A stretch of DNA of 32,000 nt, from assembly GCF_009557235.1 (NCBI RefSeq), contig NZ_CP045650.1:1560001-1592000 (forward strand), given 5' to 3'. Of this stretch, positions 8,267 to 27,807 are shown piece by piece (positions within the stretch are counted from its first letter, which is position 1; every line of letters begins with the position of its first letter). A program made the translations under genes and the position numbers. Under the pieces are notes generated by a model. It was not told the DNA's origin. It did no database searches and was given only the letters and a program-made list of their open reading frames with translations. The stretch is from Acinetobacter wanghuae (GTDB taxonomy: Bacteria > Pseudomonadota > Gammaproteobacteria > Pseudomonadales > Moraxellaceae).

Positions 8267-10258
8267 ATGAGCTTATTAGGTAAGTTAGGTCCAGATGCAA
8301 TTCCTTACGATCCAATCGTATTGGTTACAGTTGCAATGATGATCTTAGGTGGTCTTGCTGTTGTAGCAGGTATTACCTACTTTAAAAAATGGAACTACCT
8401 GTGGACTGAATGGTTCACATCTGTAGACCATAAAAAAATTGGTATTATGTATATCTTCGTATCGATCGTCATGCTTTTGCGTGGTTTCGCCGATGCGATT
8501 ATGATGCGTCTTCAACAGTTCCTTGCAAAAGGTGGTGGCGAAGGTTATTTACACCCAGAACATTACGATCAGATCTTTACTGCCCATGGCGTAATTATGA
8601 TCTTCTTCGTGGCAATGGGTCTTGTTGTAGGTTTGATGAACATCTCTGTACCGCTTCAAATCGGTGCACGTGACGTTGCATTCCCATTATTAAACTCTTT
8701 GAGCTTCTGGTTATTTGCCGGCGCTGCGGGTCTAATGATGGCATCTCTTGCACTTGGTGAATTCGCTGCAACTGGTTGGATGGCTTATCCTCCACTATCA
8801 GGCATTGAATACTCTCCAGGCGTTGGTGTTGATTACTACATTTGGGCACTTCAGGTCTCAGGTCTTGGTACGCTTCTTACTGGTGTTAACTTCTTTGTTA
8901 CCATCATCAAAATGCGTGCTCCTGGCATGAAACTGATGGATATGCCGATTTTCACTTGGACATCTTTATGTACCGCTGTGTTAATCATTGCATCATTCCC
9001 TGTGTTGACTGCAACAATTGCAATGCTTTCTCTTGACCGCTACTTCGGTTTCCATTTCTTCACCAATGACATGGGTGGTAGCCCAATGTTGTATGTGAAC
9101 TTGATTTGGACTTGGGGTCACCCAGAAGTTTATATCTTGGTATTACCAGCATTCGGTATTTACTCAGAAGTGGTTTCAACGTTCTCTCGTAAAGCGTTGT
9201 TCGGTTACAAATCTATGGTGTATGCAACCATCGCGATCACAGTACTTGCGTTCGTGGTATGGGTTCACCATTTCTTCACTATGGGTGCAGGTGCCAACGT
9301 TAACGCGTTCTTCGGTATCATGACCATGGTTATTGCGATTCCTACAGGTGTGAAAATCTTCTCTTGGTTATTCACAATGTACAAAGGTCGCATCAGCTTC
9401 ACCACACCTATGCTTTGGACACTTGGCTTCCTTGTGACTTTCGGTATCGGTGGTTTAACAGGTGTGTTAATGGCAGTTCCACCAGCGGACTTCTTTGGTA
9501 CACAACTCGTTATTCTTGATCGCTCACTTCCATAACGTAATTATTGGTGGTGTAGTGTTTGCAATGTTCGCAGGTATCATCTTCTACTGGCCGAAAATGT
9601 TCGGTTGGAGACTGAATGAAACTTGGGGTAAAGCAGCGTTCTGGTTCTGGTTCTTCGGTTTCTACTTTGCATTCATGCCACTTTATATCCTTTTGGTTTC
9701 ATGGGTATGACACGTCGTTTGAATACATTTGATAACCCTGAATGGGACCCGTATGTAAACATCGCAATGTTTGGTGCTGTTCTGATTCTATTCGGTATTT
9801 TGTGTTTCGTTATGCAAATCGTAGTTGGTTTCTTACAACGCGAACAACGTTTAGATCTTACAGGCGATGCATGGGATGGCCGTACTTTAGAATGGGCAAC
9901 ATCTTCACCTGCTCCGTTCTATAACTTTGCTCACCTTCCTAAGATCAATGGTATTGATACTTTCTGGAATGACAAAGAAGCCGGTATTGCTTATGTAAAA
10001 CCTACGTCTTATGAAGACGTGCATATGCCGACAAATCGTGCAGCGGGTATCGTGATTGGTCTAATTATCACTGTTATGGGCTTTGCATTAATCTGGCACA
10101 TTTGGTGGTTAGCAATTGCAAGTTTCGTTGCTGCAATCATCAGCTTCATCGTTTCTTCGTTCACGAAGAAAGTGGACTACTATGTTCCTGCTGCTGAAGT
10201 TGAGCGTATTGAAAACGAACGCTATGCGATCCTTGAAAAACACTTGAAGAAGGACTAG
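8267..10258 (+). pseudogene. cyoB: Cytochrome bo3 ubiquinol oxidase subunit I, interrupted by two frameshifts into three fragments (8267-9535, 9495-9710, 9701-10258)
   Basis: All three fragments carry consecutive CyoB sequence: ...[15 protein letters not shown] | [19 protein letters not shown]...FMPLYIL | GFMGMTRRL...TLEWATSSPAPFYNF. Fragments 1 and 3 share a reading frame and fragment 2 is shifted by +1. The junctions fall at the T-run 9494-9496 and at TTTTGG 9691-9696. Confidence 0.85.
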
Positions 10259-10261
10259 GAC

Positions 10262-10882
10262 ATGGCTGACGTACTTCATCACGAAACTCATGGACACGAT
10301 GAACATCATCATCACGATGATACTGACATCACTGTCTTTGGTTTTTGGACTTACTTGATGAGTGACCTTGTACTATTCGGTACACTCTTCATCGCTTTCG
10401 CTGTTTTAAGTAGTCATATTCCAGTGGGCACGCCTTCTGCGAAAGACCTCTTTGGTGATTCACTCGGTTTTGTATTAACTGAAACCTTCGCCCTGTTGAT
10501 TTCTTCTGTAACCTTTGGTTTTGCAGTACTTGCTGCATACAAAAAAGACGTTTCAAAAGTATTAACTTGGTTAGCAATTACTTGGGTATTTGGTGCTTGC
10601 TTCATCGGCATGGAGCTTTATGAGTTCTCTCATTTAGTTCACGCGGGTCATGGCCCGAGCACTTCTGCATTCCTTTCTGCGTTCTTTACGTTGGTTGGTA
10701 CGCACGGTATCCACGTGACTTCAGGTTTGGTGTGGATGATTGTATTGATGATTCAAATCAAGAAATATGGTTTGACTCTTCCAAATACACGTCGTCTAGC
10801 GTGCCTAAGCTTGTTCTGGCACTTCCTTGACATCGTTTGGATCTGTGTATTCAGCGTCGTTTACTTGATGGGAGTTCTCTAA
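10262..10882 (+). CDS. cyoC: Cytochrome bo3 ubiquinol oxidase subunit III
   Basis: The 206-aa product has a His-rich N-terminus followed by [10 protein letters not shown] and five hydrophobic helices. Its position after cyoB fits the operon order. Confidence 0.93.
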
Positions 10883-11214
10883 TGAGTCATGATCATAACG
10901 CTGCTGGTGCATCACACGGAAACACAAAACAATATACGATTGGTTTTATCCTTTCAGTATTGTTGACTGTGATTCCTTTCGGCATGGTAATGGCAGGCAT
11001 GGGCGAAACTAGCCGTGGTCTGGTTATTGCTGTTGTCGCGATTACAGCTGTTGCTCAGATTCTTGTACAATTAATTTATTTCTTGCACATGAATTCATCT
11101 TCAGAGCAACGTTGGAACGTGATTGCATTTGTATATACAATCCTATGTATTGCTGTTCTATTGATCGGTTCTGTGTGGATTATGAATTACCTACACTACA
11201 ACATGATGATCTAA
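10882..11214 (+). CDS. cyoD: Cytochrome bo3 ubiquinol oxidase subunit IV
   Basis: 110-aa product with three TM helices. Its start overlaps the cyoC stop (TAATG). The ORF-track start at 10837 was trimmed. Confidence 0.88.
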   Translation: MSHDHNAAGASHGNTKQYTIGFILSVLLTVIPFGMVMAGMGETSRGLVIAVVAITAVAQILVQLIYFLHMNSSSEQRWNVIAFVYTILCIAVLLIGSVWIMNYLHYNMMI

Positions 11215-11224
11215 ACTGGTCGTC

Positions 11225-12103
11225 ATGCTGAGAAACTATTTATTCCTGACTAAACCAGGAATTCTCTTCGGTAACTTCGTTACCACTTTGGGTGGCTACT
11301 TTGTAGCTGCCCAAGGTTCTGTAGATTTCCTTCTCCTGCTGATTACTCTACTCGGTACCACCCTCGTTGTGGCATCAGGATGTGTGGTCAATAACATTAT
11401 TGATCAGGACATCGACCAGAAAATGCAACGCACACAAAAACGTGCTGTTGTTATTGAAGCTGTTTCCGTCCCTGTTGCTTTAGTTTTTGCTTTAGTTTTG
11501 GGTGTGATTGGCTTTAGTATTTTATGGTTTTGGGTAAATGCTTACGCTTTCCTCTTTGCCGTTATTGGTTTTGTTGTATATGTTGGTTTTTACAGCCTAT
11601 GGACAAAACGAACAACGATTCACCAAACTGTTGTGGGTAGTCTTTCTGGTGCAGCTCCGCCTGTGATCGGTTATACAGCTGTCACAAATCAATTTGACGT
11701 GGGTGCATTAATCATTTTCATTGGTTATGCGCTGTGGCAAATGCCACACTCATGGGCAATTGCAGTTTACCGTTTTGACGATTATAAAAATGCAGGCATT
11801 CCTATTTTACCTGTGGCTCGTTCAATTTATCGTACCAAAGTTGAATCACTGATTTATGTGATCCTCTTTACGATTTGCATGAATGCGCTATATGTATATG
11901 GCTATGCAAATGTTCTGTATTTAATCGTGGTTAATGTACTGTGCTTATACTGGTTATATTTGAGTGTTCTTGGTTTTAAAGCCGAAAATGATCAACTATG
12001 GGCGAAAAAGTATTTTCTGTTTTCAGTGATACTGATTACCATCGTCAGTGTATGTTTCAGTTTTACCTCTACTGCACCTAGTGTGGTTCAGGTTATTTTT
12101 TAA
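11225..12103 (+). CDS. cyoE: Protoheme IX farnesyltransferase (heme O synthase)
   Basis: 292-aa polytopic UbiA-family protein (NNIIDQDIDQKMQRTQKR motif). It is the last gene of the cyo cluster. Confidence 0.92.
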   Translation: MLRNYLFLTKPGILFGNFVTTLGGYFVAAQGSVDFLLLLITLLGTTLVVASGCVVNNIIDQDIDQKMQRTQKRAVVIEAVSVPVALVFALVLGVIGFSILWFWVNAYAFLFAVIGFVVYVGFYSLWTKRTTIHQTVVGSLSGAAPPVIGYTAVTNQFDVGALIIFIGYALWQMPHSWAIAVYRFDDYKNAGIPILPVARSIYRTKVESLIYVILFTICMNALYVYGYANVLYLIVVNVLCLYWLYLSVLGFKAENDQLWAKKYFLFSVILITIVSVCFSFTSTAPSVVQVIF

Positions 12104-12133
12104 GAAGATAGAGTTCTACTCTATCTTTTTTTA
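12104..12133 (+). terminator. Rho-independent terminator of the cyo operon
   Basis: AGATAGAG-TTCTA-CTCTATCT followed by TTTTTT. Confidence 0.85.
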
Positions 12134-12260
12134 TATCTGCTTTAAATATTCTTAAAATCCCCTTCTCAAATATTCCATTCTTAAAGAAAATCACTTTTGC
12201 ATTTTCTAAATTTCCAAATGCTATGAAAGTTGTTCAGATTTGATAAAAATCGTTATTGGC

Positions 12261-12289
12261 TTGAATTTGTCAGTAAAAAGCACTAAAAT
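12261..12289 (+). promoter_or_regulatory. Candidate sigma70 promoter of the rpsF operon
   Basis: TTGAAT, a 17-nt spacer, then TAAAAT, about 115 nt upstream of the rpsF ATG. This is a sequence pattern only. Confidence 0.45.
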
Positions 12290-12403
12290 TCACGCTTCGC
12301 TTTTAATAGCGACACAATCTATCAATTGCTATTGCTTAAGGTTGTGACTCCTTGCTTCAATTTAATTATGAATTGGGGCTGCCTAAACCGTAAGGAGCTG
12401 ACA

Positions 12404-12790
12404 ATGCGTCACTACGAAATCGTACTATTGGTACATCCAGACCAAAGCGATCAAGTTGTGGGAATGGTAGAACGTTACCTAACTCACATCAAAGAAGCTG
12501 AAGGTCAAATCCACCGTCTAGAAGACTGGGGTCGTCGTCAATTGGCTTACCCAATTAACAAGATCCATAAAGCTCATTACATTCTTATGAATGTTGAGTG
12601 TGGTCAAACGACTCTTGATGAACTTGAAGAATTGTTCCGTTACAACGACGCAATCATTCGTAGCTTGATCATCCGTCGTGAAAATGCAATCACTGAAGAG
12701 TCATTGCTTGCTAAAAGTGCTGAAGAAAAGCGTGCGCGTAAAGCTCAACGTGAAGAAGCACAACAATCTCAAGATTCTGCTGAAGCATAA
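12404..12790 (+). CDS. rpsF: 30S ribosomal protein S6
   Basis: AAGGAG lies 6 nt before the ATG at 12404. The [19 protein letters not shown]-terminus is present, as is an acidic C-terminal tail. Confidence 0.96.
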
Positions 12791-12802
12791 GGAGAACATT
12801 AA

Positions 12803-13030
12803 ATGGCACGTTTTTACCGTCGTCGCAAGTTCTGCCGCTTTACAGCTGAGAAAGTTGCGTACATCGATTACAAAGATATCGACACTTTAAAACAGTACAT
12901 TACTGAAAACGGCAAAATTGTTCCTAGCCGTATTACAGGTACTAAAGCTCGTTACCAACGTCAATTAGCGCTTGCTATTAAACAAGCTCGCTACTTGTCT
13001 TTGATCCCTTACACTGACAATCATAAGTGA
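12803..13030 (+). CDS. rpsR: 30S ribosomal protein S18
   Basis: 75-aa product ([16 protein letters not shown]...[23 protein letters not shown]). Confidence 0.96.
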
Positions 13031-13039
13031 GGTTGAGCT

Positions 13040-13486
13040 GTGGATATTATTTTATTACAACGCATTAAAAACCTTGGTAAATTAGGCGATAAAGTTTCAG
13101 TTAAAGCTGGTTACGGCCGCAACTACCTTATCCCTCAAGGTCAAGCAGTAGCTGCTACTGAAGCAAACACTGCTGCATTTGAAGCTCGTCGCGCTGAACT
13201 TGAAAAAGCTGAAGCTGACGTGTTAGCTGCTGCTCAAGCACGTGCTGACCAATTGAACGAAGTGAACATCGTAATCACTGCTAAATCTGGTGATGAAGGT
13301 AAACTATTCGGTTCAATCGGTACTCGTGATATCGCAGACGCATTAACAAATGCTGGTCTTACTGTTGACCGTGCTGAAGTTCGTCTTCCAAATGGCGCAC
13401 TTCGCAACACTGGTGAATTCAACATCGCAATCCAATTGCACCATGATGTTGTTGCAGAAGTTCTCGTTACAATCGTAGCTGAGTAA
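13040..13486 (+). CDS. rplI: 50S ribosomal protein L9
   Basis: 148-aa product with a GTG start 7 nt after GAGG. The [34 protein letters not shown] block parallels E. coli L9. Confidence 0.95.
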
Positions 13487-13496
13487 TTTCTCACCC

Positions 13497-13530
13497 GAAA
13501 AAGAGCATGCATTCGCATGCTCTTTTTTTA
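13497..13530 (+). terminator. Rho-independent terminator
   Basis: GAGCATGC-ATTC-GCATGCTC followed by TTTTTTT. Confidence 0.85.
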
Positions 13531-13704
13531 TCTGTATAAAATCATCAAAGCCATACCTGTCTAAAAATTATTATTTTGTCCGCTTAAATTAAAAAAATAG
13601 GCTTCGCATTTTTTTATAGAGCGCGTATGATTTCCATTCGTAGTGAATAAAAGCTATTCATCTCCGATAATGTTTAACCATTGTATTTAAAATCAGGGAT
13701 TTAT

Positions 13705-16317: not shown

Positions 16318-16737
16318 TTATGCGGCTTCTTGCTCTTGTTGTACCAATTCATTCAAAAACAAATCCACATGATGCTGTTCAAATTCGTACGGCTTAAATT
16401 CATCAAAGCCCATACGCTGACACAAAACTTGAATGTCACTACGCTTTGATACGTATTTCATTGACCATTCACTAAACTTTTGTACCTCGATGTCTTTAAT
16501 TTCAAATAAACGAATATTTTCATGACGCGGATCTTTATAGAGTTTTTCAAGTAACATCTTTAATTTTTCAGCATCTCCCTCAAGACATTGAAAAAAATAG
16601 CCATCGGAAAAATACAACACACCATTAATCTGGTTTAAGGTATTGAAATTGCGTGCTTCACTTAAAATATTGGTTAAATCGGACAATAAATCCGCTTTTT
16701 TCGATTTACTTTGACTGACATAACAAAGTTGTTGCAT
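16318..16737 (-). CDS. Short BLUF-domain blue-light photoreceptor (BlsA-like)
   Basis: 139-aa product. The BLUF signature residues sit at the expected spacing: Tyr6 (LCYVSQS), Gln50 (YFFQCLEG), and Trp91/Met93 (SEWSMKY). GAGG lies 5 nt before the ATG. Confidence 0.85.
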   Translation of the reverse strand: MQQLCYVSQSKSKKADLLSDLTNILSEARNFNTLNQINGVLYFSDGYFFQCLEGDAEKLKMLLEKLYKDPRHENIRLFEIKDIEVQKFSEWSMKYVSKRSDIQVLCQRMGFDEFKPYEFEQHHVDLFLNELVQQEQEAA

Positions 16738-16807: not shown

Positions 16808-17542
16808 TTAATTAAAGTATTCTTCTGTCGGGATAGGCAATTCTTGTAAACCTTTTTTCAGCAATTCAGACCATTGTCGACTAATCGTATTGAAATATGA
16901 ATCATCTTCAGAGATACGCTTGCCTTGAGGCAACTCAAGACTATCACGATGATAAACCAGCACATCGAGTGGCATACCCACCGAAACATTCGAACGTAAA
17001 GTGGATGCAAATGAAATCAGCGAACATCTTAAAGCTTCATCTAGCGGCATTTCAAAACTCAAAGCGCGATCTAAAATCGGCTTGCCATATTTACTTTCGC
17101 CAATTTGAAAATACGGCGTATCTCGCGTCGCACAAATAAAATTCCCTTGCGGATAAATATTATAAAGCTGCATATCTTGATCTTTAATTTGTCCACCCAC
17201 CAACAAACTACAATAATAATTGCTTTGTTCCATGGTGTCCGCAGTGACATTTTCAATAACTTTTTTGAGGGTACTTCCAATCAATTCAGCTACATCAAAC
17301 ATGGTGTGTAACGACAGAATATTGGGCTCCTGTCGCAATTCAAGTTGATTTTTAATATGCCCAATCACCGCTTGGGTCGTTGCTAAGTTTCCTGAAGCCT
17401 GAATGACAATGAGGCGCTCTCCCGGAATACCGAAAGTGTATAACTTACGAAAAACAGAGATATGATCCACACCCGCATTGGTACGTGTATCACTAATAAA
17501 GACCATACCTTGCTCTAAGCGAAGCGCACAACAATACGTCAT
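16808..17542 (-). CDS. Anbu-type proteasome-beta-like Ntn peptidase
   Basis: The start was trimmed to the ATG at 17542, with AGGA 9 nt upstream. The product begins MTYCCALRL, with Thr directly after the initiator Met. Asp lies at mature position 17 and Lys at 32, resembling the proteasome beta Thr1/Asp17/Lys33 set. It is the last gene of the ATP-grasp/alpha-E/transglutaminase operon. Confidence 0.8.
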   Translation of the reverse strand: MTYCCALRLEQGMVFISDTRTNAGVDHISVFRKLYTFGIPGERLIVIQASGNLATTQAVIGHIKNQLELRQEPNILSLHTMFDVAELIGSTLKKVIENVTADTMEQSNYYCSLLVGGQIKDQDMQLYNIYPQGNFICATRDTPYFQIGESKYGKPILDRALSFEMPLDEALRCSLISFASTLRSNVSVGMPLDVLVYHRDSLELPQGKRISEDDSYFNTISRQWSELLKKGLQELPIPTEEYFN

Positions 17543-17561: not shown

Positions 17562-18341
17562 CTAACAACTGAGTACTTGAACGATGGAATGCATCGATTC
17601 CACACCGCCCTTGTCTCTCACACCGCGTACGGGTGCAACATCCCAATAATCACGACCAATCGCCACATAGACATGTACAGACGGCGTAAACAATTGATTA
17701 CTGACATCAAAACAATACCATGCTTGGTCTATAAATACCTCAGCCCATGCATGACTTGCAAGATGCGATACATTTTGTGCATATAAATATCCAGAGACAT
17801 AACGCGCAGGCAAGCCTAAATATTTACACATCGCAATAAAGATATGACTGTGATCCTGACAGACACCCTGCCTTGACTGAAATGCATCAATCGCTGAACT
17901 CTGCACAGAACTGCTATTCGATATATAAGGAACATGAACCAAAATTGCAGCAGCCAATCCAATCAAGGATTGTCGATTTAACGTTTTTACATGATGGTCA
18001 GCAAAGGCTTTCATCTCGCTATTACATGCTGTGGTGGGTGTCGGCTGTAAAAACAACATCGGATGCAGATTGTCTTGCATGCCGACATCTAAGTCTGTAT
18101 TTAATTCAATAATACCCTGCGCCATGATGGTCAAATGCTGATAAGGCTGACGCTGAGTACTGGTCATCCATGTATTTCCAAAGGCATCTTTCATCATCTG
18201 TTTTTGACCGGGAACACTCACATGCCAATGCTCGACACGCTGATGCTGATTTTGCATTGGTGTCATTTTGATGTACTGAATACTGCTTAAAACGTCCATG
18301 CTATAGCTGTAATGGGTTTGATGATTCACCATCAATTTCAT
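17562..18341 (-). CDS. Transglutaminase-like cysteine protease-fold protein (Bact_transglu_N plus transglutaminase core)
   Basis: 259-aa product with the typical N-terminus MKLMVNHQTHYSYS. Cys/His/Asp candidates sit in GVCQDHSH, SHAWAEV and CFDVS. The start overlaps the alpha-E stop (ATGA). Confidence 0.85.
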   Translation of the reverse strand: MKLMVNHQTHYSYSMDVLSSIQYIKMTPMQNQHQRVEHWHVSVPGQKQMMKDAFGNTWMTSTQRQPYQHLTIMAQGIIELNTDLDVGMQDNLHPMLFLQPTPTTACNSEMKAFADHHVKTLNRQSLIGLAAAILVHVPYISNSSSVQSSAIDAFQSRQGVCQDHSHIFIAMCKYLGLPARYVSGYLYAQNVSHLASHAWAEVFIDQAWYCFDVSNQLFTPSVHVYVAIGRDYWDVAPVRGVRDKGGVESMHSIVQVLSC

Positions 18342-18961: not shown

Positions 18962-20515
18962 TTATGAATGTAAATTATCGATGATCCATGTGTCTTTGAT
19001 GCCACCACCTTGGGACGAGTTGACCACTAATGAACCTGCCTGCATCGCCACACGAGTCAGACCACCCGGTACAATCTCGGTACGATACGGTGAACTCAGC
19101 ACAAAGGGACGCAAATCAATATGACGTTCTGCTACACCATGTGCACTGATGGTTGGGCAAACTGAAAGCTCCAAGGTTGGCTGTGCAATATAGAGCTCTG
19201 GAGAAGCAATGATTTTCTCTCTAAAGGCTTCAATTTGCTGTGCGGAGGCTTGCGGACCGATCAACATACCGTAACCCCCTGAGCCTTGCGCCTCTTTCAC
19301 CACAAGCTGTCCAAGATGATCTAAGACATATTCCAAATCTTGGGCTTCTCGGCACTGGTAAGTCGGCACATTTTTTAAAATGGCTTTTTCACCTAAGTAG
19401 AATTCAATCATTTTATCCACGTAAGGATAAATCGATTTGTCATCAGCGACACCTGTACCGGGTGCATTGGCAATGACCACGTTGTGTTGCAGATATACTG
19501 ACATTAAGCCTGGCACACCTAAGGTACTGTCAGGCTTAAAGCATAATGGATCAAGATAAGCATCATCGACACGTCTATAAATAACATCAACTTGTTGGCG
19601 ACCGCGTATGGTTTTTACATAAACTCGAGAATTTTCAACAAATAAATCACGTGATGTTACCAAAGGTACATCCATCTCTTTGGCAAGAAACGCATGTTCA
19701 TAGTAAGCACTATTAAAACGACCCGGCGTCAATACGACAATAAATGGCTTATCGACATACGCATTTTCAGTCAAAATCTCTTTGAGTAATTGTGGATATT
19801 GTTCAATGCCAGAAATATGTGTTTGCTCAAATAATTTTGGCATTAATTTTTGGCTAATTTTGCGGCTTTCAAGCATATAAGATACACCCGACGGTGTCCT
19901 TAAATTATCCTCAAGCACATAGCACTCACCTTTGGCATCGCGAATAATATCGATCCCGCTGATTTGGCTATAAATGCTGCCCTTTAAGCTATGCTGATAC
20001 ATATGGGGTTGATACGCTTCATGCGTCAGCACTTGCAGTTCAGGCACAATATTGGCTTTTAAAATGTCTTGTGAATGATAAATATCATGTAAGAATAAAT
20101 TGAGTGCGCGCACACGTTGTGAACACCCCAAAGCAATAGTATCCCACTGCTTACGTGCCATAACACGTGGAATCACATCAAAAGGAATCGTTCGCTCAGT
20201 GCCTTCCTCATCACCATAAACCGTAAAGGTAATACCTTCATATAAGAAATGATCTTTTGCTGCCTGATTCAGCGCCTTTAATTCCTCTAAAGTATGCTGT
20301 GACAACCATTCTTCTATTTTCTGCCCTGCCTGACCGAGCATCGCTTGATCATCACGCATTTCATTAAAAAATAAAGATGAAAACTGCTGAAACAAGACAT
20401 GTGACTTTTTCGTGGTCGAATGAACACGATCCGTTGAATCCGTAAAATGATGTTCAGTTTTATTAAAGTTATCAATCGTTGGCGTGATATTTGTATCCAG
20501 GTTCTCTTTAAGCAT
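18962..20515 (-). CDS. Circularly permuted type-2 ATP-grasp amidoligase (DUF404/DUF407, COG2308-like)
   Basis: The start was trimmed to the ATG at 20515, with GAGG 5 nt upstream. Conserved blocks are GITFTVYGDEEGTERTIPFDVIPRV, RVRALNLFLHDIY, VLEDNLRTPSGVSYMLE and GVADDKSIYPYV. Confidence 0.85.
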   Translation of the reverse strand: MLKENLDTNITPTIDNFNKTEHHFTDSTDRVHSTTKKSHVLFQQFSSLFFNEMRDDQAMLGQAGQKIEEWLSQHTLEELKALNQAAKDHFLYEGITFTVYGDEEGTERTIPFDVIPRVMARKQWDTIALGCSQRVRALNLFLHDIYHSQDILKANIVPELQVLTHEAYQPHMYQHSLKGSIYSQISGIDIIRDAKGECYVLEDNLRTPSGVSYMLESRKISQKLMPKLFEQTHISGIEQYPQLLKEILTENAYVDKPFIVVLTPGRFNSAYYEHAFLAKEMDVPLVTSRDLFVENSRVYVKTIRGRQQVDVIYRRVDDAYLDPLCFKPDSTLGVPGLMSVYLQHNVVIANAPGTGVADDKSIYPYVDKMIEFYLGEKAILKNVPTYQCREAQDLEYVLDHLGQLVVKEAQGSGGYGMLIGPQASAQQIEAFREKIIASPELYIAQPTLELSVCPTISAHGVAERHIDLRPFVLSSPYRTEIVPGGLTRVAMQAGSLVVNSSQGGGIKDTWIIDNLHS

Positions 20516-20746
20516 ACAAACCTCAGTTGTTATAAATTTGTGTTTTAAGTACAGCAATATTTGTGCCACCTAAAACAAGCACCTCACTCTATTAGGCAGT
20601 GCCCTTGTCTACAACTCAATGTAGTTTTTGCTTCAACATGTATCAAAATATAGCAATGTGACCGCAATAAACCTTGCTAAAGCACTGAAGTTTTTTTATT
20701 GTGGTGAACATTGATGTTTCACTTCCTTCATTGTTAGCTTTAAATT

Positions 20747-21745
20747 ATGTCATCACAAGAAAAAGAAACCTCCAACAGCCTGTATCGCCAATGGCAAATT
20801 TTGTCTCGTTTAAGTACGGGCAAATGGATGGGTACACGTGAATTACAAGAAATTTTGGTTCGTGAAGGCGTGGATATTAGTTTGCGTACCATCCAACGTG
20901 ATTTAAATCAAATCGCGCAGCGTTTTCCTATTGAAAGCAGTAAGACTACTCCACAAGGTTGGCGTTGGCGTTCTGATGCACCCATTCAAAGCTTGCCGCA
21001 TATGACCAGTTCTCAAGCGGTGACCTTTATGATGGTGGAAGAACATCTTAAGCATTTATTACCACCTAGTCTGATTGATGAAATGAACCCGTGGTTCGAT
21101 TTAGCACGACGTAGCCTATCGACCCAAAATAATGTGCGTCAATGGATCAATCGCGTGCGTATTGTACCTGCCAATCAACCTTTGATTCCTCCGGTGGTGG
21201 AACGTGCTGCTCAGCAAGCAATTTATGAAGGCTTATTACAAGACAAACAACTTGAATGTATTTATCAAGGTCGCGGACAACATAGTGAAGAGAAAACCTA
21301 TATTCTAAACCCTTTGGCTTTAGTCCAAAAAGGATCGATTATTTATTTGGTATGCACGCGTCACGATCGTTCAGATATCCAAACCTTTGCCTTACACCGC
21401 TTTAAATCCGCCACAGTGTTAAATACACGCGCATTGCATCCGGTGAATTTTGATATTGATGAATATATTGATTCAGGTGCTTTGGGCTTCCGTGTCGACT
21501 TCAATCAGCCTACTGAAAATATCACCTTAAAATTACATATGAGTGAAGCCGATGCTCACTATTTTGAGGAAAGCCAACTGAGTCTTGATCAATCTATTGA
21601 GAAATTAGAGGATGGTATGGCACTCATTACCGCAACTGTACCCTATACCTCTCAACTCATTTGGTGGCTCAGAAGCTTTGGTAAAAAAATTCGACACATT
21701 GAACCTGAACAAGTTGCAAATATGGTGAATCAAGTCGATGAATAA
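20747..21745 (+). CDS. HTH-WYL-WCX transcriptional regulator (YafY/PafBC/CapW-like architecture)
   Basis: 332-aa product. It has an N-terminal winged HTH (LYRQWQILSRL...TRELQEIL...SLRTIQRDLNQI). A central WYL-like beta-rich block follows (YILNPLALVQKGSIIYLVCTRHDRSDIQTFALHRFKSATVL), then a C-terminal extension. It is divergent from the ATP-grasp operon. Confidence 0.8.
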   Translation: MSSQEKETSNSLYRQWQILSRLSTGKWMGTRELQEILVREGVDISLRTIQRDLNQIAQRFPIESSKTTPQGWRWRSDAPIQSLPHMTSSQAVTFMMVEEHLKHLLPPSLIDEMNPWFDLARRSLSTQNNVRQWINRVRIVPANQPLIPPVVERAAQQAIYEGLLQDKQLECIYQGRGQHSEEKTYILNPLALVQKGSIIYLVCTRHDRSDIQTFALHRFKSATVLNTRALHPVNFDIDEYIDSGALGFRVDFNQPTENITLKLHMSEADAHYFEESQLSLDQSIEKLEDGMALITATVPYTSQLIWWLRSFGKKIRHIEPEQVANMVNQVDE

Positions 21746-21748
21746 ATT

Positions 21749-21772
21749 AAAAAAAGTCCCATAAAGGGACTG
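21749..21772 (-). terminator. Short hairpin whose T-tract lies on the minus strand. It may terminate a minus-strand transcript and weakly stop the WYL gene.
   Basis: The minus strand reads AGTCCC-TTTAT-GGGACT-TTTTTT. On the plus strand the hairpin is followed by GATAATTTG only. Confidence 0.4.
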
Positions 21773-26141: not shown

Positions 26142-27182
26142 TTAATTTTCCTGATGTGAACGAATCAAGCCCTGCTCATCAAATAAAACAGGCTCAGGTT
26201 CAAGTGCGATATTAAATTGATTCCATACATCCTGCTGAACTGCTCGATATGTAGCACGAACGTCTTTGAGTGATGCATCAGCATAATTGACCAAAACAAG
26301 TGCTTGTTTATGGAACATACCAACGACACCCAATTGCTTGCCTTTCCAGCCACTTTGGTCAATCAGCCAACCTGCGGCTATCTTAACGTGATCGTTGGGC
26401 TGAGGATAATGAGGTAATTGTGGGAATTTTTGTGCAATTTGGTCAAATACTTTTTGCTCAAGTACAGGATTTTTAAAGAAACTGCCCACATTGGGATATT
26501 CTTGTGGATTAGGCAATTTACTTTGACGAATATGAATCACCTGACGTTGCAAGTTTTCTGCTGTCTGTTCATCAGCCACTGCTGCTTTTAAATCCCCATA
26601 ATTGAGTTTCAAATGTGCTTGCTTGAGTAATTTGAAGATCACATGCGTAATCACGTAACGGTTAGGATCATCTTTAAAAATACTATGCCGATAAGCAAAG
26701 TCGCAATCTTTGGCAGCAATTGCGCTAAATTGTTTCAGTTTACGGTCATAGACTTCAACTGAATCAATAAACTCACCCACTTCTACCCCATACGCACCAA
26801 TATTTTGTACAGGTGAAGCACCCACCAAACCGGGAATAAGCGCAAGGTTCTGTAAACCATACAACTGCTCTTTGGTCGTCCATAGCACAAAATCATGCCA
26901 AATTTGACCTGCCCCAACCTTTAAACGTTGTTGGACATCATCGCCATCTAATAATTCAATGCCTTGAATATCCATATGTAGCACAAGCGCATGAATGTGT
27001 TCTGGCAATAACATATTGCTACCGCCAGAGAGAATTAAAATATTCAGCTGTTGTTGCTCGGCAAAATCAAGTGCAGCAAGCAAGTCTTCAGTGGATGTTA
27101 TTTTTGTATAGTGCGAAGCAATCGCATCTAAATTCAACGTATTAAAGGGCTTAAGTTGAACCTGTGTCTGAATATGCATCAC
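26142..27182 (-). CDS. murB: UDP-N-acetylenolpyruvoylglucosamine reductase
   Basis: 346-aa product. It has [46 protein letters not shown] and VGSFFKNP, matching my recollection of E. coli MurB. Confidence 0.94.
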
Positions 27183-27689
27183 TTAAACCTTAAGAATTTT
27201 TTGTTTAAAAATTTCAACCCAAGCCAAACTACTTGACTCACATTGATCAATCACGCGTTCAAAGCCCGCTGCACCACCATAATAGGGATCGGGTAAGGCT
27301 TGTTTTGGATAATCTGAATCATGTTCGCTCATGAGCGCCACCTCTGCACGGAGATGTCCAAATTCACGTTTGGCTTGTGCTTGTAACGCCAAGATATCCG
27401 CTAAATTATCATGATCCATCGCAAGGATGAGATCAAATTCAATAAAATCATGCGTTTTCAATTGGCGTGCACGTAGGCTCGATAAATCATAACCACGCTT
27501 TAGCGCATGTTCCTGACTACGCGTATCAGGCGCTTTATTGGGATGATAATTACTAGTTCCCGCAGAATCGACCATGACATTGAGTTCTTGTTCATCACAA
27601 TAATGTCTAAGAATCACTTCTGCCGTGGGAGAACGACAAATATTTCCCAAACATACACATAACACCTTAAATGGCGTTTTGGATGACAT
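27183..27689 (-). CDS. Low-molecular-weight protein-tyrosine phosphatase
   Basis: The start was trimmed to the ATG at 27689, with GAGG 6 nt upstream. The active-site loop is CVCLGNICRSP and a DPYYG motif is present. Its stop abuts the murB start. Confidence 0.88.
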   Translation of the reverse strand: MSSKTPFKVLCVCLGNICRSPTAEVILRHYCDEQELNVMVDSAGTSNYHPNKAPDTRSQEHALKRGYDLSSLRARQLKTHDFIEFDLILAMDHDNLADILALQAQAKREFGHLRAEVALMSEHDSDYPKQALPDPYYGGAAGFERVIDQCESSSLAWVEIFKQKILKV

Positions 27690-27807
27690 AAACAACCTCA
27701 GCATCGCTTTATTTCTAAGATTCTTATGTTAAGTTATTTAGATAATGAATCCTATATCACAACGACAGAATAATTTTGAATTTGATATAAAAATGAAGGA
27801 CAACAAG

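Follow-up and report, generated by a model that had tools for sequence, protein, structure and literature searches.

The locus described here lies within a 32,000-nucleotide stretch of the Acinetobacter wanghuae genome (assembly GCF_009557235.1, contig NZ_CP045650.1, positions 1,560,001 to 1,592,000 of the forward strand), hereafter the window, in which a gene encoding a 332-aa regulator with WYL and WCX domains is transcribed divergently from a four-gene operon. The operon encodes (i) a circularly permuted (CP) type-2 ATP-grasp protein; (ii) a short Alpha-E protein; (iii) a transglutaminase-like protein; and (iv) Anbu, a proteasome-type protease. The intergenic region shared by the two transcription units is 231 bp in length and has a GC content of 34%, compared with 41% for the window. 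An earlier note on this DNA had pointed to the same divergent arrangement across an AT-rich region, which the coordinates and base composition confirm, and had proposed that the Anbu module is held under ligand-gated repression by the regulator, in parallel to PafBC and to the regulators of defence systems. The features of the locus are listed in Table 1.

Table 1. Features of the Anbu/WYL locus of A. wanghuae (positions are those of the window).
Feature	Position	Strand	Basis
BLUF blue-light sensor gene, between alr and the Anbu gene	16318..16737	-	
Anbu, proteasome-type protease (COG3484), N-terminus Met-Thr-Tyr-Cys	16808..17542	-	Pfam Proteasome
Transglutaminase-like protein	17562..18341	-	Pfam Bact_transglu_N and Transglut_core
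Short Alpha-E protein, 200 aa	18338..18940	-	Pfam Alpha-E, E 4e-9
Circularly permuted type-2 ATP-grasp protein (amidoligase), first gene of the operon	18962..20515	-	Pfam CP_ATPgrasp_2, E 6e-151
Shared intergenic region	20516..20746		
Predicted sigma-54 -24/-12 promoter of the Anbu operon, TGGCAC-AAATA-TTGCT (TGGCACAAATATTGCT, 20568-20553)	20553..20568	-	consensus and conservation
Short palindrome CTACA-N6-TGTAG	20609..20624		
ACTCAAT block, semi-conserved, in the stretch that separates the two promoters (about 45-65 nt upstream of -24)	20614..20620	.	alignment
Short palindrome TAGCAA-N17-TTGCTA	20651..20679		
Probable sigma-70 promoter of ddaA: -35 TTGCTA (20674-20679), 17-nt T-rich spacer, -10 TATTGT (20697-20702)	20674..20702	+	conservation
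Imperfect inverted repeat GTGAACA-TTGA-TGTTTCAC, inside the predicted ddaA 5' leader	20704..20722	.	sequence
ddaA-type gene, 332-aa transcription activator of winged helix-turn-helix (wHTH)-WYL-WCX type	20747..21745	+	Pfam, AlphaFold2, Foldseek, residues; 79-94% identity within Acinetobacter
wHTH of the ddaA-type gene, about residues 3-74	20753..20968	+	AlphaFold2 model
WYL of the ddaA-type gene, residues 157-224	21215..21418	+	Pfam
WCX of the ddaA-type gene, residues 258-327	21518..21727	+	Pfam
GC-rich hairpin after ddaA, probable bidirectional terminator	21755..21771	.	terminator scan

The regulator was found to be 100% identical to WP_153371628.1 of A. wanghuae. Its WYL and WCX domains were both detected by Pfam above the gathering score (E-values of 2e-13 and 8e-10, respectively), which places the protein in the WYL family as the earlier note had read it. 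For the N-terminal 125 residues, no helix-turn-helix (HTH) model of Pfam reached threshold and only sub-threshold winged-helix matches were returned (residues 14-60); the HTH was settled by structure prediction. The AlphaFold2 model, which was built on an alignment of 102 homologues and had a predicted local distance difference test score of 89.6, displayed an N-terminal domain of three helices and a beta-wing, followed by a helical linker, a WYL barrel, and the WCX domain. When the model was searched with Foldseek, full-length alignments to DriD, PafBC, CapW, and BrxR were obtained, and because of these the wHTH-WYL-WCX architecture can be regarded as real. DriD was the best of these matches (8tpk/8tp8, E-value 1.6e-14, template modelling [TM] score of 0.56-0.58 over about 333 columns), with PafBC, CapW, and BrxR scoring more weakly. 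NCBIfam gave no informative match for the regulator or the operon proteins. The regulator is encoded by a single WYL gene with a terminator behind it, the hairpin probably separating it from a downstream gene with a Glu_synthase domain, and no second WYL ORF (open reading frame) was present anywhere in the window.

A regulator of this type has recently been characterised in the same bacterial family. DdaA is a WYL-family activator of the DNA-damage and anti-phage responses of the Moraxellaceae, in which it took over from the LexA SOS system, and it has been studied experimentally in A. baumannii, A. baylyi, A. radioresistens, and A. nosocomialis (Song et al. 2025, Nucleic Acids Research, PMC12392091; Ellison et al. 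2026, Nucleic Acids Research, PMC13010146). The protein is a homodimer that detects single-stranded DNA (ssDNA) with its WYL domain and brings in RNA polymerase. The published accounts present it as an activator and not as a repressor, with recA, aciT, ssb, uvrA, dgt-ruvAB, CRISPR-Cas, and restriction-modification genes as direct targets; these are activated by way of a DdaA box, CGWCA-N5-TGWCG (PMC12392091, PMC13010146), which is located about 50 bp upstream of the target start sites (PMC12392091). Published names include ACIAD2439 for A. baylyi, HKO16_RS19275 for A. baumannii ATCC 17978, and A0A7U9PMQ2 for A. radioresistens (PMC12392091, PMC13010146), and A. wanghuae appears among the 88 genomes analysed in the 2025 study (PMC12392091).

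The window protein was compared with DdaA by means of the published residue numbering and description. In A. baylyi DdaA, the recognition-helix arginines R47 and R51 are needed for promoter binding, Y173 and Y200 are the ssDNA-sensing tyrosines of the WYL domain, and A229 is a suppressor site (PMC13010146). All five residues were found in the window protein at exactly these numbers, with R47 and R51 situated inside helix 46-59 of the model. The hallmark reported to set the DdaA cluster apart from DriD and PafBC, a replacement of the first of two beta4 arginines by alanine (PMC12392091), was also present, as FALHR (A215, R218) of the window protein aligned with WRLDR of the RSWRLDR sequence of DriD; among the 102 family members, position 215 was occupied by alanine in 76 and by arginine in none, while R218 was invariant. 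Members of the family were 331-336 aa in length and 38.4-38.7 kDa in mass, in comparison with the 334 aa and 38.685 kDa given for A. radioresistens DdaA; when the latter was sought by this mass and length, no exact match was found among the 120 matches listed, outside which it probably falls. The regulators of Acinetobacter, including that of A. baumannii, formed one ortholog group of 79-100% identity, and DriD was the nearest solved relative of the window protein both by sequence (PDB) and by fold, in agreement with the published tree (PMC12392091). On the basis of the matching residue numbers, the A215 hallmark, and the single ortholog group, we infer with high confidence that the window gene is orthologous to the ddaA genes studied, and it is referred to as ddaA below. 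The regulator itself is then already known, as the master activator of the response of Acinetobacter to DNA damage and phage. The parallel with PafBC drawn in the earlier note proved apt in this respect, given that the protein matches DdaA, a DriD/PafBC-like ssDNA-sensing regulator of damage and anti-phage genes (PMC12392091, PMC13010146).

The ATP-grasp/ddaA intergenic regions of nine Acinetobacter species (A. wanghuae, A. baumannii, A. lwoffii, A. venetianus, A. kookii, A. bohemicus, ANC 4910, ANC 4470, and ULE_I001) were aligned and found to be highly diverged except for two conserved blocks, both of which were promoter-like. The block on the operon side resembles a textbook sigma-54 promoter, an assignment made by consensus and conservation: it has GG at -24, GC at -12, and the spacing TGGCAC-N5-TTGCW in the correct orientation, and it is positioned 37 nt upstream of the ATG of the ATP-grasp gene, which is preceded by GAGG as the ribosome-binding site and whose product retains the N-terminal sequence MLKEN in four species. 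The pattern TGGCAY-N5-TTGCW was fully conserved in seven of the nine species and on a metagenomic contig of a sister lineage (L089); ANC 4470 has a weakened form with CGGCAT, and in A. bohemicus, with its decayed operon, the element is degenerate. Across 63 Anbu loci, the ATP-grasp gene was preceded by the strict pattern in 21, a 26-fold excess over the 0.8 expected from the background rate in these same loci, and strict and relaxed patterns together were found in 29 of 64 loci when the window itself was included. These matches spanned Acinetobacter, Enterobacterales, Burkholderiales, Methylomonas, Alcanivorax, Bordetella, Accumulibacter, and Hyphomicrobiales.

Promoters of the sigma-54 type require an AAA+ enhancer-binding protein and cannot be activated by a WYL protein alone. 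The operon, as the carrier of such a promoter, is therefore predicted to depend on an AAA+ enhancer-binding protein and not on its WYL neighbour. This protein is most likely NtrC acting under nitrogen limitation, by analogy with other genera. In Pseudomonas putida, Anbu is cited as strongly induced by nitrogen limitation (PMC5666114, PMC6376114) and PP_2685-2688 are assigned to NtrB/NtrC control (PMC7801951); a transglutaminase cluster of Burkholderia cenocepacia is sigma-54- and NtrC-dependent, and COG3484 is enriched among the predicted sigma-54 regulons of Proteobacteria (PMC12316311). The presence of the sigma-54 element before Anbu operons of many genera fits this published control by NtrC and nitrogen limitation.

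The second conserved block was the best conserved on the ddaA side and is probably a sigma-70-type promoter, being correctly placed for the WYL gene. The sequence TTGCNA-N17-TATTGTGT was shared by seven of the nine species, with the -35 hexamer one base off in the other two (TTGAAA and TTACGA), and a 14-mer of the spacer, GTTTTTTTATTGTG, was exact in six species. The T-run of the spacer was not invariant, differing in ULE_I001 and A. bohemicus, and in a simple promoter scan the element scored 8 of 12, under the threshold. Between the two promoters, the ACTCAAT block was partly conserved in about five of the nine species and might, speculatively, be architectural (similar to a site of integration host factor, IHF) or enhancer-related. 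Rfam analysis of positions 20300-21000 returned noise-level microRNA matches only, with no riboswitch or known small RNA.

The repeats that the earlier note had put forward as candidate operators were examined in the same alignment. The imperfect inverted repeat just upstream of the regulator start does exist, at a position one base from that reported (20703-20721), but it requires a 1-nt bulge, is absent from the other eight species, and is at chance level, as 42% of the shuffled versions of the region contained one or more repeats of such quality. The two short palindromes were likewise confirmed to be present, but only one arm of each lies in a conserved block and the other arm is not conserved. 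An 11-nt inverted repeat, ACCGCAATAAA/TTTATTGTGGT, was also considered as an operator but was discarded for want of conservation of its left arm among the aligned species. No conserved dyad or palindromic operator was found in the nine aligned regions.

The intergenic regions were then scanned for the DdaA box. At up to two mismatches, no CGWCA-N5-TGWCG was found in any of the nine ATP-grasp/ddaA intergenic regions, and matches with three mismatches occurred at the chance rate. At up to one mismatch, the box was absent from the intergenic region and operon of all of these loci, and the sites found elsewhere in the 15-32 kb examined were few, isolated, and not conserved; within the window, no box was located in an intergenic region. 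For ddaA itself, self-regulation is reported to have been lost by the ancestor shared by Acinetobacter, Moraxella, and Psychrobacter, and the gene is not induced by UV, mitomycin C, or ciprofloxacin (PMC12392091). A DdaA-like box with two mismatches, CGACAACCATTGCCC, was seen just upstream of the ddaA homologue of the sister lineage (L089 9971-9985), and is possibly left over from the self-regulation that basal Moraxellaceae are reported to have. In the main text of PMC12392091 and PMC13010146 and in a part of the preprint supplement, Anbu, transglutaminase, and ATP-grasp were not named among the regulated genes; the part of the bioRxiv supplement that includes the start of the predicted regulon tables has no transglutaminase, proteasome, peptidase, or ATP-grasp entry, and the list of DNA-damage-induced genes of A. 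baylyi has no ACIAD243x gene. The proposal of ligand-gated repression by the regulator is not supported by these results, as DdaA is an activator and its box is missing from all nine species.

To count how often a WYL regulator neighbours Anbu, as the earlier note had suggested, an alignment of diverse Anbu proteins was scanned against one genome per species. The survey comprised 80 loci with 10-kb flanks from the Gamma-, Beta-, and Alphaproteobacteria and other groups, and four more from PLSDB. All six-frame ORFs were searched for WYL neighbours with (i) the window protein; and (ii) a hidden Markov model of the window protein and 141 diverse homologues, at E-values up to 1. Both searches identified a WYL neighbour at 10 of 10 loci of the Acinetobacter lineage, and no WYL gene was found within 10 kb at any of 80 Anbu loci outside it, including those of the Moraxellaceae relatives Agitococcus and Psychrobacter. 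The pairing is thus specific to one lineage. Within Acinetobacter, the left flank of the locus (dnaB-alr) is fixed and the right flank is variable.

The DdaA family was found in other settings outside this lineage. A 48%-identical homologue of Psychrobacter follows a LonC-type gene (LonC_helical/AAA_32/Lon_C; immediately upstream, L086 7026-11137) near gidB-parAB, not Anbu; a 41%-identical homologue is in the same gidB-parAB region with the LonC-type gene one gene away (L091 5796-11053); and a 44%-identical homologue (P0126) overlaps a NUDIX gene beside ruvB and has no protease nearby. On the sister contig L089, where a 65%-identical homologue is divergent from the Anbu operon, a LonA gene is located immediately downstream of it (10001-13643). 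Three protease families, Anbu in Acinetobacter, LonA, and the LonC type, were therefore observed beside one regulator family. In A. kookii (L094), A. bohemicus (L095), and the 41%-identical lineage L091, the right flank of ddaA carries genes for MurB and LMWPc proteins at a distance of a few kb, and two minus-strand ORFs at window positions 26142-27704 match them by size and order alone. This hints that ddaA has stayed at its ancestral place in the chromosome and that the Anbu operon is the later arrival.

The A. bohemicus assembly GCA_020742465.1 (L095 4697-7000) was informative as to how the two units are retained. No ATP-grasp ORF of at least 50 aa was detected over about 1.4 kb, in which tblastn found fragments at 36% identity, the transglutaminase was reduced to its last 66 residues, and the -12 element of the sigma-54 promoter was degenerate, while Anbu, Alpha-E, and ddaA were intact, with the regulator 88.5% identical to that of the window. 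The regulator being intact beside a decayed ATP-grasp and transglutaminase, it is maintained independently of the operon.

Overall, these results make it likely that the locus is composed of two independent and already known units placed back to back, and that their adjacency is a lineage-specific synteny, not a regulator-target pair. The ddaA gene would be expressed from its own sigma-70-type promoter with no autoregulation, and its product, on sensing ssDNA, would act through CGWCA-N5-TGWCG on its own regulon (e.g., recA and ssb). The ATP-grasp/Alpha-E/transglutaminase/Anbu operon would be transcribed from the sigma-54 promoter with the help of an AAA+ enhancer-binding protein, presumably NtrC under nitrogen limitation as suggested by P. 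putida PP_2685-2688; and the adjacency would have arisen in the Acinetobacter lineage and then persisted. In this scheme the function of DdaA and the NtrC dependence of Anbu are taken from published work, the latter from other genera. Several points weigh against the two units being independent: (i) the orthology to DdaA is drawn from residue numbering, hallmark, and family structure; (ii) no site for an enhancer-binding protein was recognised in the intergenic region, including the NtrC-type TGCACC-N5-GGTGCA, which was sought by eye in the nine-species alignment and of which none was conserved; (iii) 104 DdaA peaks were reported by chromatin affinity purification sequencing (ChAP-seq) compared with 14 predicted motif sites (PMC12392091), and more than 300 genes change in a ddaA deletion (PMC13010146), so that a non-canonical or indirect effect of DdaA on the operon is possible; and (iv) the divergent pairing is kept in all nine Acinetobacter species and by the 65%-identical homologue of L089 despite different outer flanks, and thus persists more than random synteny might predict.

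The last two of these points, together with the divergent arrangement over a shared 231-bp region, are also what speaks for the WYL protein as a local regulator that binds this region and releases or activates the Anbu operon upon DNA damage, phage infection, or a nucleotide signal. If correct, this would provide the first regulatory handle on the functionally orphan Anbu and would recall the way in which PafBC and the Pup-proteasome are paired in actinobacteria. We nonetheless regard it as improbable, as the proposed operator is neither conserved nor above chance, the two promoters are the only strongly conserved elements of the region, and neither the DdaA box at this site nor an Anbu-related term in the portions of the DdaA papers and preprint supplement described above was found; moreover, the sigma-54 promoter is of a type that a WYL protein would not activate by itself, WYL genes are missing from the 80 other Anbu loci, and ddaA outlasts the operon in A. 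bohemicus. A post-translational link was also weighed, in which DdaA would be a substrate or partner of the adjoining proteases (Anbu, LonA in L089, and the LonC type in Psychrobacter and the related lineage), in a manner resembling the control of PafBC levels by the Pup-proteasome. The finding of three protease families next to DdaA-family genes in four lineages is consistent with such a link, as is the published connection of PafBC with the Pup-proteasome system. However, this evidence is one of gene context in a small sample without statistics, P0126 lies beside NUDIX and ruvB genes with no protease, the LonC-type gene may be merely syntenic within the conserved gidB-parAB region, and no biochemical evidence of protein degradation by Anbu is cited in PMC5666114; a link of this kind is considered very unlikely. 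We attach an equally low likelihood to cross-talk between the promoters, whereby a sigma-54 enhancer situated about 105-150 bp upstream of -24 and overlapping the promoter of ddaA would allow nitrogen status to modulate ddaA, or ddaA transcription to modulate the operon, with no binding by DdaA. Upstream activating sequences typically lie as far away as the ddaA promoter block does, and the spacer of this block, with the 14-mer exact in six species, is unusually conserved; yet no dyad or NtrC-like site was recognised in it, the T-run is variable, and the -35 and -10 hexamers at 17-nt spacing fully explain the block.

A real functional coupling of any form, with DdaA influencing or being influenced by the adjacent Anbu module through a non-canonical site or by proteolytic or covalent modification, is likewise held to be quite improbable. 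Were it true, Acinetobacter would have independently evolved a coupling of a WYL damage activator to a proteasome-family system like that of PafBC and the Pup-proteasome, and the same coupling would account for the LonA and LonC-type neighbours of the DdaA family elsewhere in the Moraxellaceae. What is left as a curiosity is that the two units have stayed paired across the whole Acinetobacter lineage and that proteases are found beside DdaA-family genes in several lineages of Moraxellaceae. With the two units read as independent, the result is negative but useful: a divergent adjacency such as this should not be taken as a regulator-target pair, and the starting point for work on Anbu in Acinetobacter is nitrogen limitation, rpoN, and ntrC rather than DNA damage.

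Further observations were made on the operon and its relatives. The gene content of CP ATP-grasp, Alpha-E, transglutaminase, and Anbu with Thr1 after the initiator Met in one operon, and the gene order, are as described in PMC5666114, and the MTYC start was invariant in an alignment of Anbu with genes annotated as 'proteasome-type protease'. The Alpha-E protein of Acinetobacter covers only positions 5-172 of the 294-position Pfam model and is the least conserved of the operon proteins, with 41% identity to that of A. baumannii compared with 74% for ATP-grasp and Anbu. In Psychrobacter, ATP-grasp and Alpha-E are fused into one ORF of about 790 aa (L011 6636-9014, L012 6765-9116, and L014 6723-9086). 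The BLUF gene was present in A. wanghuae and ULE_I001 (L093) and not at that position in A. baumannii, A. kookii, or A. bohemicus, and on account of this distribution is viewed as a variable insertion at the 3' end of the operon. Two Anbu paralogues were found within 4 kb of each other at three loci (L005 6365-7132/9905-10771, L049 5888-6670/9325-10050, and L081 2039-2812/5486-6235), which belong to an Acidithiobacillus caldus megaplasmid and two betaproteobacterial metagenome-assembled genomes; in A. caldus the pair is beside glnA-ntrBC. Three A. baumannii 'plasmid' records of 3.7-4.1 Mb (NZ_CP064203.1, NZ_CP077849.1, and NZ_CP104448.1) are evidently mislabelled chromosomes.

Among known regulators, DdaA is the closest to the window protein, with which it shares the genus, the size (334 compared with 332 aa), the wHTH-WYL-WCX architecture, the functional residue numbers, A215, and DriD as nearest solved relative; by the reported features of the published DdaA proteins, no difference was found. 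DriD of Caulobacter crescentus (8tp8, 8tpk, and 7tzv), the best match by structure and by PDB sequence, is likewise a homodimeric ssDNA-sensing activator and has a similar box, CGAC-N7-GTCG, but is only about 17% identical, retains both beta4 arginines where the first is alanine in the window protein, and is assigned to a different phylogenetic cluster than DdaA (PMC12392091). PafBC, the second-best structural match (9fnd), likewise belongs to the WYL family, responds to ssDNA, and activates a DNA-damage regulon that is independent of LexA, and it is encoded beside a proteasome-related locus; it differs in that it consists of two paralogous chains, PafB and PafC, encoded in tandem or fused, and works through sigma adaptation at a -26 element, whereas DdaA is the homodimeric product of one gene with a box about 50 bp upstream of start sites (PMC12392091), and the Pup-proteasome and the Anbu operon are non-homologous systems except for the beta-subunit fold. 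CapW and BrxR have the same three-domain architecture but are shorter (about 285 aa), form a separate clade (PMC12392091), and were weaker structural matches (E-values of 1e-8 to 1e-5, TM about 0.3); both act as repressors, and their palindromic operators lie within their own promoters, next to CBASS or BREX. The parallel to such defence loci did not extend to the window, in which no neighbour matches a defence model and no palindrome is conserved; with PADLOC, nothing was returned for the ATP-grasp and Anbu proteins, and the regulator matched generic (CRISPR-associated) WYL models only, with no BrxR- or CapW-specific assignment. For the operon, the counterpart is PP_2685-PP_2688 of P. putida, for which induction by nitrogen limitation is published, while the Acinetobacter operon is known here from its sequence, with an unusually short Alpha-E protein and no recognised NtrC site; the two have in common the same four-gene content and, as in many genera, a sigma-54-type promoter.

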